Assembly (NCBI GenBank): GCA_030295235.1
Contig: AP026146.1
Location: 124,001-188,000 of the forward strand
Direction: 5' to 3'
Length of the DNA: 64,000 nt
Source: Fistulifera solaris
Lineage: Eukaryota
A program made the position numbers and the translations under genes. Every line of letters starts with the position of its first letter. Position 1 is the stretch's first letter. This document shows, piece after piece, positions 22,423-62,846 of the stretch. The notes below the pieces were generated by a model. It saw only the letters and a program-made list of their open reading frames with translations, ran no database searches and was not told where the DNA came from.

Positions 22423-25400
22423 TCAAGACCGACGTTTGGTAAATTCATTACGCGCTGTCTCATCTTTCGGAACAAGCTTCCCTGCAACGGCTTCGTAAAA
22501 AAAATCCGCAAGCATTTCAGTTGTAGGGCAATACTCGACGCGAAGCTCCTTTCTCTTGATTCTGTCTGTCACAAAGAAATAGCGAATGTCGATGTGTCGA
22601 CTTCTTCTTCCGCTCGATGCCCTTCCGTTCCTTTCAAGCAAAATGGCGCTCTGGTTGTCCTGATAGACAACGTTGTCTGTCAGCCTCATACCCTGTGCTT
22701 CCAAAAAATTCCGAGTCCAAGTGATCAAGTGCATTCCGTCGTCAACGCCAACAAGCTCTGCTTCAGTCGAACTCTTCGTGTTAATTTTCTGTCGTGTCGA
22801 TCCGGAGATCGCGGACCCCTTCCCAAGTGACATGGTTACTCCAGTGTGACTTCGCATGTCATGGTGGACGGCAAAAGATGCATCAATCCACCATTGAATT
22901 CTGCAACAATCAGCCATTTCGAGGGTCAAAGGGAGTTTTGGTTCGCTCCGCAAATACCGAATGCATCGTGCCAATTTCTTCCAGTCGTCCACGTCCGGTT
23001 GTTTCACTCGTGTGGTCAAAAAGGCAACCGCTGTTTGTATGTCGATTCGCACCCGCTTGCAAAGATAAAGAAGTTTTGCAGTGAACCGATGAAACAGGTC
23101 CGCCTTCTCTGGTGGTAATTTCTCGGCCTCCGCATTGATTGTGAACAAATTTGCTGTTGCAGGGGTCACTGATATTCCATCAAAGTCGCTGGGAGCCTCG
23201 TTCAGCAGGTTTTCCACGTAATCATCCATTTTGAACTGCACCTTTCCGTCTTGTGAAAAATCCAGTGTCATGCCCAAATAATCATGAACATCTCCGCGTG
23301 TGGCGGTAACTGGTGCTTCGAGAGTCCCATACTTGTCATTGAACTTCGCTGCAATGTTGTCAAGCACTTCTTGGTCAGCGTGGGATATTTTCAAATCATC
23401 TACGTGCCAGCATATTGTGCATTGTTTTCCGTTTATCACTTTGTTCGCCACGCAACTGTCGTACTGGTTAATGACAAACCCCAGCTCATCAACCAGGAAT
23501 GATGAAATGTTTTTATAAAACAACAAAGCTGCTTGAAGCGTACCATACAGTGCCTTGGTCAGCTCCACATAAATCACGGGCTTTCCATTTTCAGTCACGA
23601 TGAATTTGCGGTACTTTTCCGGGTTCACTCGGGCAAGCAGTTCTGCCAAGGCTCCTTCCATCTTCATGTGTATCAATTCATCCATCTTGGAGTGCATGAA
23701 CGCACCCGGAATGTCAAGGGTCATTATTCGGCGTCTCTCAGAAGCATCAATCAGTGCCGTAAGGAACACTGACTCTGTTATTACAGTTGGCGAAGTTGTT
23801 TCTTGCTTGCTCTTGTAAAGTCGTTGGGGACGTCCATCAGCACATCCACGAGCCTTGATGCGACCACAGCGTTTCTGTTTCAGGTACATTAAGTATCGGA
23901 GCGCTTTTTTTAGTTGCTCTCTGCTTAAAGATTTCTTCTCTCGTGGTGCAATTGCATCCATGCGATCCAGTTGTCTCATTTCATCAACCACAGAGTCGGC
24001 GCCTTTCTTCCCAAAAACCTTGAGCCCGCGGTTGAGGGGCATCTGTTCAGTCAGAAACAATGATTCTGTCACAGCATCCATACTCTCTTTTAACGCGACT
24101 GGGTCTTGATCAGCCAGATATGCGTGGAGATGATCATAGCTCCAGCGGTTTTCTCGGTCGAAGGTTGATCCCATGGTTCCGCGGACCATATCTTACGTCC
24201 ATTCCAGCGATGATTCGTTCAGCTTCACTCATGTCTGGCCCTTCACCTACTGATTTGGCTTGGGACTCGTCCTCTCCCACTCCTGTGCTTCCGTGAGAGT
24301 CATGGTCGTCCCCCACTCCTGTAATTTCGGGCGGTTCATACTCCACTCCTGTATTTTCGACAGAGTCGTCTTCTGCTTGATCCATATCATCAGCGTTTTC
24401 TGCGGGATCTATGTCTGCAGGCTCAAAGTCTTGTGCGCCATCGATCTCTTCATCATTGTCTGGTTCGCTTTGATCGCTTTGATAACCATCGTTGGGCACT
24501 CCTGCGATGGCAAAAGGCTGAGCAAACGGTGCAGGATCATCATCAGGAGCAAAATCATCGGACGCGTAAGAGGCAGATGAATCGGATGCCGAGGAGGAGT
24601 CATCGTTGTCAGGTGAGTAATCGGAGTCGTGATCATCATCAATTTCGTCAGGGTGATCAGGAAATTCGATACCGAGGCGGTTTGCAAATGTGAGTGTCTT
24701 GGGCATTTTTTGTTTGGCACCGAGCTTGTTTACCCGGTCAATCACATCATTGGGCATGTTAAGTGGTGTCCAGTATTGTCGGTGAAGTCTGCGGCCAGTG
24801 GTCAGGGATAGAAAATAGTGTCCGCCTTGCTCATTCCCAGTAGGACCAAGGCAGATGGCCCCGGTGGTGCGAGGGCGCATGTCCGGGCGTATGGGCCTCA
24901 TGTGTTTGGACGTAACTGCCAAACTCGCATTGAATATGCTTTTTGGCCGCCGAGGTGTTTGCCAGTGAGTAGATACCGTGGTGATAGTGTGTTTGACACC
25001 CCGTCCTTGTGCGGGAAAGCGTTTAGCCAGAAGACAGCATTACCAACTAGACGTGCAAGCATGAGCCTCGTGGGATACGGGTAAATGGCAAGAGATTGTA
25101 TCCACATCGCGACGCGATCTTTTACAGTTCGAATGAACCTCTCAATTTCCGGTACGTGTTCATCGCGTGATGTGAGGTTGAACGTTATTTTAGGAAAGTC
25201 CACCTCCAGAGGAGCAAATTCAAGGTCGGCATTAATGACGGTGACTCTGAAGCCACGCCGTTCATACAGTTTGATGACATGAGAGAGTGCATTCGATACT
25301 GTGGGAATCTCTCGGTTGTCAAGATCTTCGGCCGTCCCAAAATGTAAGTTCGCGCGAGGTGGTCACAAGAAAAGGCACTTTGTTGATGTGTAAGATGTCG

Positions 25401-56948: not shown

Positions 56949-58448
56949 CTATTCTGTTTTCTTTTCTTCTACGGCAGCCGAAGGTGTGAATTTGCTTTTC
57001 AAACATCCTTGCTGTAGTGCCAGGTCTTCAAAGGTTGTCAATAAGCTGGGTGCCATCGGAACATCCAACGTCAAATCAGGCAAGATTGTATGAAGTCGAT
57101 CGATTCCTTTCTTCACTTGATACTCTGACACGATGGCGTTGCGCACGAGGAAGCCAAATAAGGCCGCCATGGCATCCAGATTCGAATGGGCATCGGGGTC
57201 CCCATCTGCCTTCATGCCGTCTTTTTCCATGGCAGCGAAAACGCCTCGCTTGACCAATTCGTGATGAAAGTGAGCTGCTTCCAGCTCTTTCACACAACGA
57301 GCCGCCTCGTCGAGCTCACAACTGAGCAAGTACTCTTGCAAGAGCTGGTCCATATCCTTCTTGAGATCTTCCACCGGACGGCCGTCACCGGGTCCCCAAA
57401 CTTTCTCTAAACGAGCCGTGCAATGTTCTCGGCTGAGCAAAGTCAAAGCTTTCTCAATTACCAGATCTCCGGGACGATTGTTGTTCTGGTCGGACATGAA
57501 TGCCGGAGGGAGTACCTCGTCCACTACAGCTCGTGCAAGGAACGAAGCTACAATTGTCTGTTTCCCCAACACTATATGAGCTACGAAAATAAAATAATTC
57601 GAACAACCAATACCCTTTTTCCGCCACTTACCGCCGCATCCGGTACATCTGTCTGCAAATCCTCCATGGAATCCAAAAGTTTCTCAAATCCGGTCGTCAT
57701 ATCGGACATGGTCATCGGGGTGGGATGTAAGCAGGTGAGCAAGCGACTGGTCAACTCGCGAGACCGCGAACTCTTGTCGAGCGCCAAACTGACGGCCTTT
57801 TGACAATTTCCGAATGATATTCTTGACAGCCTAGTTCCTCTAAAGTTCGAATCACTTCATCGGTATCGGCGGAATCGTAATACTCGTGAAGACACTCGGT
57901 CAACTGGAGTTTAAATTCACTCAAGGTGAGCAGGGGGCCGTAGACAGCTTTCGACGTTCCCGGATCGTATCCACGTTTCTCGGCAACGTCGGACTCCATG
58001 CTGCTCAGAATGTACCGAGACGAATCCTCGGCTTCATCGTAAATCGGATCCTTCTCGTCAATGGGGTCTTTCTCGGCGTAAGAAGGATCCATCAATTCTT
58101 TCCATTGGCCCTTCCCGTGACCGCCTTGTTTCTTGAAGGCGCTGTTGTAATTACCCGAGTCTTTGTCGGCGGTCTTTTTACGGGTAATGTTTCGTTTCGC
58201 TGTGCCTTCGACGACCTTCGTCTCGTGTTCGCCTTCTTTGGGTTCGGTTGTCTTGGCGATAATCTTGGCGGCCTTGGCTTGAACTTCCGTGGAAATGGCT
58301 CGAATACCTTCACCCGTCGGATTGTGGACTTTTCCCTAGAAACAAGGCACGTGTCAGTGTTTGTTACGGCCGAATTCACGCAAAGGGGGCCAGAGTGACG
58401 TACCATGGTGCTTACAGTAATTTCTGGACGCTTCGCGAATTCGGCCAT
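56949..58448 (-). CDS. PDCD4: PDCD4-like MA3-domain translation repressor (introns about 58335-58403, 57573-57631)
   Basis: KKQGGHGKGQW motif and two MA3 domains (EYYDSAD, FLARAVVDEVLPP, FHHELVKR, DLTLDVP). Confidence 0.88.
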
Positions 58449-58632
58449 GACAAGTAATGATATATTGTGATAATAGCAATTTGAAATGATAAGGGATGCT
58501 TTGAAAATTAATTCTCTTTCTTGTTTCGGTTAGTAGGAGAAGGTAGGATGGTTGATGATGACAATCCACTCACGATCACTCTCGACTTGCGTGTCAAATG
58601 GATCTTGGATCCTCACAAAACTATAAAATTAA

Positions 58633-61600
58633 CCCATATCCGGTCATGATATCCCATTTGGGATATCATACCCCATTTTAGCGAAGATTTCGTTACCTAA
58701 CTTAATCTCTGTTTAACTTTCGAAATCCCCATTTTGATATTGTAATCCTTGTTATTTAAGTAAATTGGTTCTGAAATTTGTTTTTAAATTAGGCAGACAT
58801 TGCAAATCCTATTATCTGCTATATCGAGCACCTCGTCGGCACTTTTTGCTCTGTCTGTCACCCACACAAGGCCCTTTTTCTCATTCCAATATCTCGATCA
58901 CCATGGCGTCTCCTGCAAATCTGGTTGATAATGATCAACAACAACAACCAAAAAAAACGAAAGTGTGGCCTTTGCAAAAGCGAAGGTCATGACAAACGGA
59001 ATTGTCCTGCGCGAAACCGTTTACCAGCCCAAAATTCAGTGCCTGACACGACCGTACATCAAAATGATGTTATTGTGGCACCACCAACACCTCCCATGCC
59101 TGCTTTTGTTCCTCGATTCCCTCCTATACTTAACTGGCAACATATTCTTTATGTTGTATTTGATTTGGAGACCACTGGATTTTCAAAAAAGTTTCACGAA
59201 ATCATTGAATTGTCGGCACAGATTTTGAATCCATCCGGTATTCAAGTCGAAGATGGCCAATTCAGCGAACTTATCCATCCAAGCAAGATGATTTCGGATG
59301 AAATCATTGCATTGACTGGAATAACCAATGATATGGTTAAGAATTCTCCATTGTTCCCAGTTGTTGCAAGAGATTTCATCCATTTCATGCAAAAATGTGC
59401 ATCAGAATCCGACATTCGTGTTGATCACATCGTCCTCGTTAAGCACAATGGGAAACGGTTTGATGTTCCTTTCTTGCTTTCTGAATTGAAAAGATACAAT
59501 CTTGAACATCATATCCTTGAAGATCATAGGTTTGGGTTTGCTATCGACCACGATAGAAATGGCAAAAAAACTGTCTCTCAAAGAAATTTGGCAGCACCGC
59601 CAGCTTACAACCTTGGTTCTCTTTTTCAATATGTCACTGGTGAAAACCCTGACCAAGCGCATCGTGCTTGGTCAGATGTGCAGTCAACAGTCCGTGTATT
59701 TCGCTTTCAGCACTTTTGGTCAATTCGTCTGAGTTGCTTGTTCTTGTTACATCCGAATGCATTGGAAGCTCCCACCACATTGACACTGGATCTGCCTGAC
59801 GACTGGAGGAGGAGGAAGTTTCTTCTGATGAAGAAAGCAAAGTCGGGAAGAATTCACTGATGAATTGATTGATGAAGTCAATAATCAAACGCAGCCTCTT
59901 GGGGATTCTTGGGAAAAGGATGTCATCTTCCAGGCTATGGAGCCGAATCCAATGGAAAGTTTCCGGATCCACCACACAACAGTTGGCAGGAGCGAACGAG
60001 TTATAACGGGTCTGTTGTGCAGTCCCATTGATGTCAACACACCGATTCGTGCCTGGAGGGAAATTTTCAAGAAAACACTACTTGATAGAATAGTGTTTCA
60101 TACGAACGAATACGGAAAGCTACGATCAAAAGATTGGAAGGATGTTACACGGCATGATCTGGAGCAATTCATTGCGGTGTTATTCCTTATGAGTATCCAA
60201 AAGCGAAAAGACAAGCCATCAAACTGGTTCTCAGACGATCCATACCTTGAATGTCAGGCTGCAAAAAACATTATGAGTGGGCGAAAATTCCACAAGATGC
60301 TTCGATTTCTTCACTGTTGCTCTGTAACCAATCAACCAACAGGAGACAATTATGATCCAGCCTATAAGATAGCAGAAGTACGGGACTACCTGGAAGACCG
60401 CTTTTCCAGATTATTTTCACCTGGCCAACAATTGTCACTTGATGAGACTCTCATTCGTGCATTTGGAAGGATGAAGTTCAAAGTGCGCATCATTTCTAAG
60501 TCAGCACGGTACGGGATCAAAGTATATGTGTTGACTGATGCTGAAACAGCATATGTCCTTCGTGTTCTTGTTTACACCGGAAAAGCGACCTAAAAGAACA
60601 TGAATCAGATGAAGTCAACAAAAAGAAAACTGTTCAGGTAGTTGAGAAGCTGGTGAGCCCATTCTTTGGTACTCACAGAACTGTTTATGTGGATCGGTTC
60701 TATACATCAGTTGATCTGATGAAGGCGCTGAAAAAAAATGATATCTATGTGACGGGGACCGTTGTTGCAAACAGACTACCAAAAGATGTGCGACTAGCCA
60801 AGAATTCACCGGTGTTTAAGTCCATGAAAAGAGGAGATGCTATTAAGTTTCGCTTAAAGATGAATGATGGAAGTGGTGGGGTCTTCTATGCTGGTCTGGT
60901 GTGTTGGAAAGACAGTAAAATGGTTTACTGCCTTTCGAATGACAGCAATAATCATGACTTCGATGAGTGTCGGCCGAAGAGTGCAAGGTGGGATTGTTAC
61001 AGTCCCAAGACCAATCTCAATTGCACACTACAACAAATACATGGGGGTGTTGACTTGGCGGATATGCGCCGGTTGCACTGTAACTCGACGGTGATGGGAC
61101 TAAGTCGTTGGTGGTTAAAACTCTTCTTCTATTTGCTGGATGTTGGGACTTCTAATGCTCTTGTCTTGTACAACGAGTCACAGAAGCAAAGAGTCAATGA
61201 TTATAAGCCAACAAATATTGTGGAGTTCAAAGGAAAACTAATCTCCAGTCTTGCAGGAGAGATGTCTGGAAATGAACCGAATGTGGCAATGGCAGGACAT
61301 AGGGCTGAGAAGATTCCTAATGACCAGAGATCCAAATGTGCCTATTGTTCCATTCAAGGAAAGGACAGTAGGTCAAGGTACAGATGTGAAACTTGTGGAA
61401 TTCCCCTTTGTTCTGTTTTCAATGGTAAGAGTGATCACGATTGCTTCAGTGAGGCTCATAAAAATGAGGATGTGAGACAGTTGACACTTGCCCATTACAA
61501 GAAGATGCAGACAACAACAAACAACAGAGGAAAGAAAAAAAATTAAAATTAGTAATCTATATATAGTCAACTCACTATTCGGTGACTTTCAATGGAAACA

Positions 61601-61758
61601 ACCAATGATATGTTAGTTTTGCAAAGGTTTATAACTTAAGATCCATGATTTCATAGCATCATTAGTACATTTGCGTAGAAACAGTACCAGGTATAATTAC
61701 AGTTTCTGACCGGTACTGATATCCCATATGGGATATCAGGGGGGTGATCGGATATCGG
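58633..61758 (+). mobile_element. piggyBac-superfamily DNA transposon
   Basis: TTAA at 58629-58632 and 61759-61762; TIRs CCCATATCCGGTCA / CCGATATCCGATCA (12 of 14); subterminal palindromes; transposase inside. Confidence 0.95.
58903..61546 (+). CDS. Zn-knuckle + DEDDh exonuclease + piggyBac DDD transposase + Cys-rich domain (frameshifted, probably one protein)
   Basis: CGLCKSEGHDKRNC; VFDLETTG, HNGKRFD, HRAWSD; SLDET, YVDRFY, GGVDLAD; CAYC...CETC...C...CF...H. Confidence 0.85.
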
Positions 61759-62327
61759 TTAATACAAATTCGCTCTTCGCATAAAACGCTCGATCGTTTT
61801 GCGCTTCGTTGTGACCGAATGTCATGTTCTGTTGCGGTGACACTTTTCTATCTCCTTTTGAGTAGAATTGGAGTCGTAGTACGACTTTCTGACGTAATAC
61901 GAAGGCTTCGACCGAAATTCGCCTTCGTGCGCGGCATGAGCGCGGCACGTTAAAGCTTATAGAATATAGGATCCGAACACCGCACCCTGACTTTGTCAAA
62001 TTCGAGTGAATTGAGCGAGATTAGGGTCACTTTAGACTAGTTAAAGCGATAAATTGTATAAGTCTACCGAATGCATGTGTTAGTCGAACTTAAAAGCCGC
62101 ACCCACAAGAGATAAAACAAAAAGCGATTCATTCAGATGTCACCGACGAGGAGAAAGTCGAAGTAACACCCTGTCCATCCAAAGTGCAAAGCATTATGCG
62201 CACTATCAATGTTTGCCGATGAGACTAGTAACACAGAAAAGAATAAAAAGGTGGAGAGAAACGTATCGCATTAAATAATCCGATAGGAAAAAAGTCTCCT
62301 CGCTCTTCGCTTTGTATATACGACTCC

Positions 62328-62846
62328 TTACTCGTCCGTCGAACCGTCATCCAACTCGTTCCATTTGCCTTTGCCTCCGCCTCCTCCGCCTTGTTTCTTG
62401 TCTTTGCGGTTGGGATCATGATCATGCTTTCGTTGAATGTTTCGCTTGGCGGAGCCTTCTTCTCCGACCACGGTTTCGGGAATGTCGAGTTTGCCCTTGT
62501 GGTGCTCTTCTCTGCAAGAAATTGCGAAGGAAACATAAAATGAGCTAGTGAGAATATAAGGAATCGAATAAGGAGAAACATAAGCAACGGCTTTCACACG
62601 AAGGTGATATTGAAATTGACTTAAAAATCATGTACCCCCGTTCTCAGAAAAGATCCAATTGCAAAACCTGCACCCGAAATTTGTGATTGCTCTCTTAACA
62701 AGCTGCTGCAACATCAGTCGTGAACATTCGAAAATGTCCACCCCCTGTCGTGTACAATCTTTCGGCCGCATCGTGTCATCCGTGCGAAACAGGAACCCAT
62801 TGTTGCATCCAAGTGCACCGCCGACTTACTCTTTAGGGTGTACCAT
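62328..62846 (-). CDS. Spliced 66-aa protein resembling the PDCD4 N-terminal motif (exons 62846-62830, 62511-62328)
   Basis: ATGGTACACCCTAAAGA|GTAAGT ... TTGCAG|AGAAGAG is phase compatible; similar to neighbouring PDCD4 N-terminus. Confidence 0.6.

Follow-up and report, generated by a model that had tools for sequence, protein, structure and literature searches.

Transposons of the piggyBac superfamily move by a cut-and-paste route in which a 3' nick is followed by formation of a hairpin on the transposon end, opening of that hairpin and strand transfer that is specific to TTAA. Here we describe an element from a 64,000-nucleotide stretch of Fistulifera solaris DNA (contig AP026146.1 of assembly GCA_030295235.1, positions 124,001 to 188,000 of the forward strand; this whole 64-kb stretch is referred to as the window, and all positions are counted from its first letter). 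The element shares with canonical piggyBac transposons (Trichoplusia ni piggyBac, PDB 6x67/6x68; piggyBat, PDB 9c0f) the TTAA target, inverted ends of the CC(C/G) type, asymmetric subterminal repeats and a transposase in which an acidic disordered region precedes a DDE_Tnp_1_7 catalytic core with a DDD triad and a Cys-rich domain stands at the C terminus. It differs from them in carrying an additional N-terminal module of ∼290 amino acids (aa), comprising a putative zinc knuckle and a DEDDh exonuclease, in belonging to a family whose subterminal repeats are perfect or near-perfect palindromes, and in having a Cys-rich tail without a match to Pfam zf-Tnp_2. It is very probably a recently active piggyBac-superfamily cut-and-paste transposon with one gene, encoding an 881-aa protein that consists of the knuckle, the exonuclease, a disordered acidic linker (∼50 aa), a DDD transposase and the Cys-rich domain.

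Analogous exonucleases are carried by transposons of other superfamilies. KolobokD (Kojima and Bao 2022, Mob DNA 13:24, PMC9587614) is presented as a TTAA-specific DDD/E cut-and-paste lineage whose DEDDh exonuclease resembles TREX, ERI1 and exuperantia and, as its authors suggest, degrades DNA intermediates from the 3' end; it belongs to a different superfamily (Kolobok), occurs in molluscs, arthropods and cnidarians, and is compared here with the window element by its published description. Dada (Kojima and Jurka 2013, PMC3706591) contains, within the polypeptide of its DDE transposase, a DnaQ-like 3'-5' exonuclease for which the processing of cleaved 3' ends has been proposed, but this exonuclease is of the DEDDy type and lies between the catalytic residues, whereas that of the window element is of the DEDDh type and N-terminal, and both superfamily and target differ. 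The combination of piggyBac with an exonuclease as a transposon-encoded accessory activity was named in one sentence in 2013, in which Kapitonov is named (PMC3627910). That sentence gives neither a family name nor a host, specifies no architecture (fused or separate) and presents no data, and the relevant passages of the meeting report cited there (PMC3520738) do not name piggyBac. Our literature search, which had Repbase and Dfam outside its scope, found no description of the family, the fused architecture, its ends or its hosts beyond the 2013 sentence. The initial annotation of the window, a model's reading of the sequence, had allowed for a prior description, and this caution was justified: the piggyBac-exonuclease combination is already in print, the kind is barely documented, and the window element is a further member of it.

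As assembled, the element holds its coding capacity on the plus strand in three stop-to-stop frames (58793–59860, 59832–60593 and 60545–61546), and its longest open reading frame (ORF) with a Met start is 309 aa. Intact homologues of 887–913 aa are colinear with it: in tblastn comparisons, P0003, P0004 and P0006 match the window from the knuckle to the last residues, with frame jumps where the ORFs change, and the segment 60972–61042 proves to be misread in the third ORF, another frame giving the conserved ...RPISIA.YNKYMG... Contigs of four public runs (X1 to X4) were aligned on window positions 57800–62600. X1, labelled “RNA?” as a guess, is treated as DNA because it covers intergenic flanks, and it is taken to represent the same organism as the window because the unique flanks match without a single difference (0 over 228 nt and 713 nt, 941 nt in all). 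Inside the element, X1 departs from the window by eight single-base indels (58950, 59548, 59563, 59804, 59844, 60592, 60972 and 61042) and, across its 3,126 bp, by seven substituted letters at four places. The indel sites coincide exactly with the places predicted by the protein alignment; X2 and X3, soil metagenomes of another study, share the X1 state at 60972, and X2 does so at 61042 as well. When the X1 differences are applied to the window by script, one 881-aa ORF results, which opens with the ATG at 58903 and closes with the stop at 61546, and omission of any one of the eight indels leaves a shorter ORF. The restored protein aligns end to end with all of the 16 homologues compared, at 44–53% identity. 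The fused ORF exists in the organism; the X1 contigs merge several copies into collapsed consensus pieces and demonstrate the intact form for the organism as opposed to this locus.

These results uphold the fusion of roughly 880 aa that the initial annotation had proposed, with a knuckle, a DEDDh exonuclease, an acidic linker and a piggyBac transposase in one chain, and its limits of 58903 and 61546 are the true ATG and stop. Its reading of the breaks between ORFs as single-base slips needs correction as to their number, which is eight frame-relevant indels as opposed to two or three. Introns were considered as a cause of the frame changes and rejected, given that intact relatives align colinearly, with no gaps where the breaks fall, and that X1 differs there by single bases; programmed frameshifting is ruled out on the same two grounds.

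We lean towards the view that the eight indels of the window are uncorrected assembly errors in a repeat, because indels outnumber substitutions, half of them sit in homopolymer runs and the flanks are perfect. A real, though lesser, possibility is that the window copy is genuinely dead, having decayed by eight indels, and that only other genomic copies are functional. Such a copy would account for the lack of any Met-start ORF longer than 309 aa in the element as assembled, for the absence of the window state at all eight sites from the X1, X2 and X3 contigs, and for the complex difference at 60592–95, where one indel is accompanied by three substituted letters. Ordinary decay, however, gives the opposite of eight indels against seven substituted letters, a ratio that is typical of long-read consensus left uncorrected in repeats. 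Four of the indels fall in runs of at least three identical bases and several at CG sites, which also speaks against decay, as do flanks identical to those of X1; moreover, Logan contigs drop rare variants, so that the missing window form proves little.

The gene occupies 58903–61546 of the plus strand, on which all parts of the protein are read. A CCHC zinc knuckle of the form C-x2-C-x4-H-x4-C, preceded by a basic KKRK stretch, is recognizable as a sequence pattern at 58964–59005; its Pfam matches lie below the cut-offs, both for the AIR2-like ZnK4 (PF21759, E 4.4e-4, 20.6 bits versus 27) and for zf-CCHC (PF00098, E 0.25, 12 bits versus 20.8). The DEDDh 3'-5' exonuclease domain follows at 59153–59701, within the frame-2 ORF 58793–59860, which matches Pfam RNase_T with E 2.7e-22 (80.5 bits versus a cut-off of 24). 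All five Exo residues can be read in the sequence: the D and E of Exo I (59162-64 and 59168-70), the D of Exo II (59462-64) and the H and D of Exo III (59660-62 and 59675-77, in an Hx4D arrangement). The assignment rests on the RNase_T match, on the modelled fold with its Foldseek matches, and on the invariance of the catalytic residues. The acidic, Ser-rich linker (59744–59900) contains the frame breaks at 59804 and 59844. Its equivalent in P0004 (residues 293–333) is modelled as disordered, with a predicted local distance difference test score (pLDDT) of about 30, and the full-length model of that protein consists of two folded modules and this disordered joining stretch.

The piggyBac transposase catalytic region extends over 60039–61159 and is matched by Pfam DDE_Tnp_1_7 in two pieces, both above the cut-off: the first half of the profile (1–179) in 59832–60593 (E 2.5e-37) and the second half (182–348) in 60545–61546 (E 1.2e-19). 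Its PDB sequence matches are piggyBat (9c0f, E 7e-19) and piggyBac (6x67, E 8.6e-12), and the three catalytic aspartates of the DDD triad are read at 60441-43, 60692-94 and 61052-54. The C-terminal Cys-rich domain (61337–61459) is defined by seven conserved Cys/His columns, C819, C822, C835, C838, C843, C854 and H859 in P0004 numbering. The knuckle, the exonuclease motifs, the D/D/D and the Cys-rich tail are found by Pfam and motif reading at the places where the initial annotation had put them.

The fusion is a trait of a family. Searching with the exonuclease part for longer proteins gave 44 at E ≤ 0.001, 16 of which (728–952 aa) combine PF00929 with PF13843 in a single chain. When a full-length member served as the query, 91 proteins were obtained at E ≤ 1e-30, and a search of these for the joint RNase_T and DDE_Tnp_1_7 architecture, a check that the initial annotation had suggested, found both domains in 71; the other 20 are short (488–697 aa) and look like partial models. 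Among the 57 fused proteins of at least 800 aa, the D1, D2 and D3 patterns of the transposase aspartates occur in 57 each, the Exo I, II and III patterns in 55, 56 and 54, respectively, and the CCHC knuckle pattern in 35. An alignment of 15 full-length proteins has the DEDDh and DDD residues invariant in all 15 at a mean column identity of 50%. A profile search of 1.84 billion representatives returned 1,823 proteins at E ≤ 1e-30; plain piggyBac transposases make up most of them, and seven full-length representatives span both modules. Pfam RNase_T and DDE_Tnp_1_7 were both present in 7 of the 13 proteins checked, including the distant P0124 (897 aa), P0178 (835 aa) and P0240 (990 aa), in which RNase_T is N-terminal, and the fusion therefore extends beyond the tight clade around the window element. 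A further distant piggyBac protein, P0235 (941 aa), has an N-terminal RNase_T match below the Pfam cut-off.

In metagenome contigs of the Joint Genome Institute (JGI), close relatives (39–64% identity) account for 26 of the 80 loci retained, six of the 26 having whole single ORFs of 872–928 aa, and the other 54 are plain piggyBacs of 23–33% identity that match the fused query only from residue 307 on. Ends like those of the window element (TTAA with CC[CG]A..ATC..TCA) were recognized at 7 of the 15 loci examined; a strict TTAA-anchored search for inverted ends had returned L016 only, and the figure of seven comes from a looser search. The other eight loci gave no clear ends, some because their contigs stop inside the element. 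TTAA flanks the related elements L001, L009, L013, L016 and L020. Viral contigs gave 291 matches, the best 80 of which cover the exonuclease only (query residues 18–308, 25–54% identity) with no fused form among them, and we therefore see no sign of viral carriage.

The initial annotation had raised the possibility of a diatom-restricted lineage. The sole full-length member with an organism name is an 871-aa protein on a 5-Mb contig of the diatom Nitzschia inconspicua, the rest being metagenome or assembly proteins. Its public name is “PolC-type DNA polymerase III”, many members are named “DNA polymerase III epsilon subunit-like” by JGI, and one member sits on a 3.9-kb contig that has been binned into a cyanobacterial (Nodosilinea) metagenome-assembled genome. 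These names and this binning (P0054, P0072 and JGI-named relatives) are wrong or misleading, and the DNA polymerase III subunit labels on family members in public databases should be corrected.

The limits of the window element are those of a piggyBac transposon. A TTAA target-site duplication flanks its 3,126 bp on each side, at 58629–58632, where contigs of X1 and of X2/X3 that have different flanks break off (58628–58633), and at 61759–61762, where X1, X3 and X4 have loose ends at 61761/61762. The terminal inverted repeats are 14 bp long; the left one (58633–58646, plus strand) starts with CCC, and 12 of its 14 positions equal the reverse complement of the right one (61745–61758, minus strand), which starts with CCG when so read. 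The initial annotation had likewise noted TTAA and inverted-repeat boundaries. Subterminal palindromes of 22 nt lie at 58647–58668 and 61717–61738, and a pattern scan found these two sites only in the entire window, against a chance expectation of 0. The right end alone has a G6 spacer (C6 on the other strand) between its terminal repeat and its palindrome, at 61739–61744. Six of the seven related loci with ends (L001, L005, L009, L013, L016 and L020) likewise have a C-run at the right end only and a palindrome of 20–28 nt in the same position. On the reverse strand of the element, the run varies from CCCC to CCCCCC across the window element and these six, and it has been kept among elements whose proteins are only ∼50% identical; judged from the sequences, it looks like a conserved left/right asymmetry resembling that of classical piggyBac.

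Mobility is apparent from several insertion sites and from a deletion derivative. At least three further left flanks (stops at 58628, 58629 and 58633) and one further right flank (61761) occur among the X1 contigs, the change falling exactly at TTAA, and the soil runs X2 to X4 add further different flanks. Word depth in X1 is 68–93 for element contigs versus 10–15 for flank contigs, although such depth does not measure copy number. Another X1 joint, between 59294 and 61069 and with a depth of 30.8, represents an internal-deletion derivative of 1,352 bp (3,126 − 1,774). Four metagenome relatives (L011, L013, L016 and L020) are internally deleted in the same manner, with 2.3–2.7 kb between intact ends, and the family regularly gives rise to non-autonomous copies. 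In a diverged contig of X1, position 58618 is connected to 61812, a joint that might conceivably be an empty-site allele.

X1 also carries a second version of both flanks (57800–58420 and 61812–62470), about 7–9% diverged and with about half of the summed depth. In this version a gene with an MA3 domain has an in-frame gap of 6 nt at 58232–58240, and a stretch of 362 nt is replaced at 61951–62323. This version is probably the other haplotype, in which the element may be lacking.

As to the kind of exonuclease, its best PDB sequence relatives are the proofreading exonuclease of PolC (2p1j, E 1.2e-9), followed by ERI1 (E 2.4e-6 over ∼70 residues) and TREX1/2 (about 1e-4). Among stand-alone proteins with a name, those closest to it bear the labels of plant DPD1 organelle-DNA exonucleases (E about 1e-12, 33–34% identity) and of bacterial epsilon-like or DnaQ-like proteins. 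An AlphaFold2 (AF2) model of the knuckle-exonuclease part has a pLDDT of 86. Foldseek places TREX1 (7tqq, E 3.8e-11; TM 0.60/0.73), PolC (9qpc) and DnaQ (8h2f) about equally close to it (E about 4e-11), with probability 1.00, and the modelled fold is that of a generic DEDDh exonuclease. The resemblance to TREX1 is in fold only: identity to TREX1/TREX2 is ∼20% and phmmer E-values are 7e-5 or weaker, PolC- and DnaQ-type proteins scoring better by sequence.

A phylogeny of the exonuclease, another check that the initial annotation had suggested, gathers the transposon exonucleases, 16 of the 48 rows in the tree, into one clade with support 97/95. The DPD1 rows fall in a separate group (98/88), and the exonuclease is accordingly not a DPD1; the DPD1/MutS-fused and PolC groups stand apart from the transposon clade. 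No well-supported sister of the transposon clade appears in the 48-row tree, its link to a bacterial group reaching 92/86 only. The topology is consistent with a single old capture of the exonuclease within the sampled family. Compared with cellular DEDDh DNA exonucleases (PolC/DnaQ proofreading domains, TREX1/2 and plant DPD1), the transposon enzymes have the fold and all five catalytic residues in common but form a clade of their own and have no polymerase attached.

Several observations weigh against the reading of the element as a recently active transposon with a working fused protein. The copy at this locus is, as assembled, not an open frame, and the X1 consensus places the intact form somewhere in the organism as distinct from this locus. 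A single transcript for the fusion is predicted from DNA contigs and protein comparison, and the nuclease activity, its substrate and its importance for transposition are likewise predictions. Among the 57 fused members, the strict Exo I, II and III patterns failed in two, one and three, respectively, and the strict Exo II or Exo III pattern was missed in three of the six whole metagenome ORFs. In the Cys-rich tail, Pfam zf-Tnp_2 was not matched and all zinc-finger matches were sub-threshold. Finally, piggyBac chemistry would suffer if a 3'-5' exonuclease attacked the 3'-OH ends of the transposon itself.

The element would be expected to move by the ordinary piggyBac route of 3' nick, transposon-end hairpin, hairpin opening and TTAA-specific strand transfer; this standard mechanism is taken as given because the transposase part is complete for piggyBac needs. 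The exonuclease would then be an accessory activity, held beside the transposase by the flexible linker. The initial annotation had listed trimming of ends and breakdown of excised DNA or of silencing RNA as tasks that the nuclease could have. We tentatively favour a role on DNA 3' ends that arise from excision or integration, in the processing of the donor gap or of the joint. A DNA 3'-end role in cis is preferred because the enzyme is catalytically intact across ∼50% divergence, is always tethered and has DNA enzymes as its nearest relatives; the authors of the KolobokD and Dada papers put forward a role of this kind for the exonucleases of those elements. Any such role would require a protected or different substrate, because trimming of the element's own 3'-OH ends would be harmful.

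Diatom transposons are targeted by methylation and small RNAs, and the exonuclease could be a counter-defence module, either ERI1-like against small silencing RNAs or TREX1-like against stray DNA that alerts the cell, fused to the transposase so that one gene expresses both. ERI1 is indeed among the sequence matches, over ∼70 residues, TREX1 is the top fold match, and the N-terminal knuckle is closest, below threshold, to the RNA-binding AIR2 type. We nevertheless consider this unlikely. The best sequence relatives, the PolC proofreading domain, DPD1 and DnaQ-like proteins, are DNA enzymes, and the tethered fusion is kept in all 57 of the full-length members, whereas a freely acting enzyme would need no tether. 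In addition, DEDD exonucleases are described as having been captured by Kolobok, Dada and P transposons (PMC9587614, PMC3706591, PMC3627910), a recurrence that suggests a need common to cut-and-paste chemistry.

A more specific and more speculative version of a DNA 3'-end role, which we judge improbable, is that the exonuclease chews the 3' strands at the excision gap, blocking seamless re-ligation of TTAA and forcing homology-directed repair, by which the element is restored from the sister chromatid. If so, a conservative cut-and-paste transposon would become effectively replicative, and the P, Kolobok, Dada and piggyBac elements, having captured DEDD exonucleases independently, would have arrived at convergent solutions to one problem.

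Domesticated piggyBac fusions are common, but the idea that the window holds a PGBD-like host gene, derived from a piggyBac transposase and happening to carry an exonuclease domain, can be set aside with little hesitation, since such a gene would sit at a fixed single locus with its ends lost, whereas here the TTAA-flanked inverted ends and the DDD triad are intact, X1 shows the element at several sites that differ in their flanks, together with a deletion derivative and what may be an empty-site allele, and the same ends are kept by related elements in unrelated samples.

piggyBac is among the main tools for transgenesis and gene therapy and is valued for its scar-free excision. A diverse natural lineage in which the transposase always comes with an apparently active (as predicted) 3'-5' exonuclease therefore offers a direct test of what end-processing contributes to piggyBac chemistry, and it is a possible source of new transposases for algae. 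Its value is tempered by the fact that the combination has been in print since 2013 and that analogous exonuclease-bearing transposons are known, and we consider the interest moderate; it lies chiefly in the availability of a variant of an important transposase that is open to experiment.

Pieces of the element also occur, with flanks of their own, in runs X2 to X5, soil metagenomes of two further studies, where they are mostly 90–99% alike (few ≥99%) and the window's flanks are uncovered. They may reflect the presence of the host or a close relative in soil, or an element shared between species. In the window, the MA3-domain gene (PDCD4/eIF4G-like, 56949–58335, minus strand) has two exons, and the element lies ∼300 bp past the upstream end of its open frame. 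No tRNA genes were found in the window, which is ordinary eukaryotic nuclear DNA around the element, with genes for an alanyl-tRNA synthetase, a RING protein and an acyltransferase, and with a 589-aa frame for a copia-type reverse transcriptase at 22423–24192 (minus strand; RVT_2, E 2e-15), indicative of a retrotransposon.

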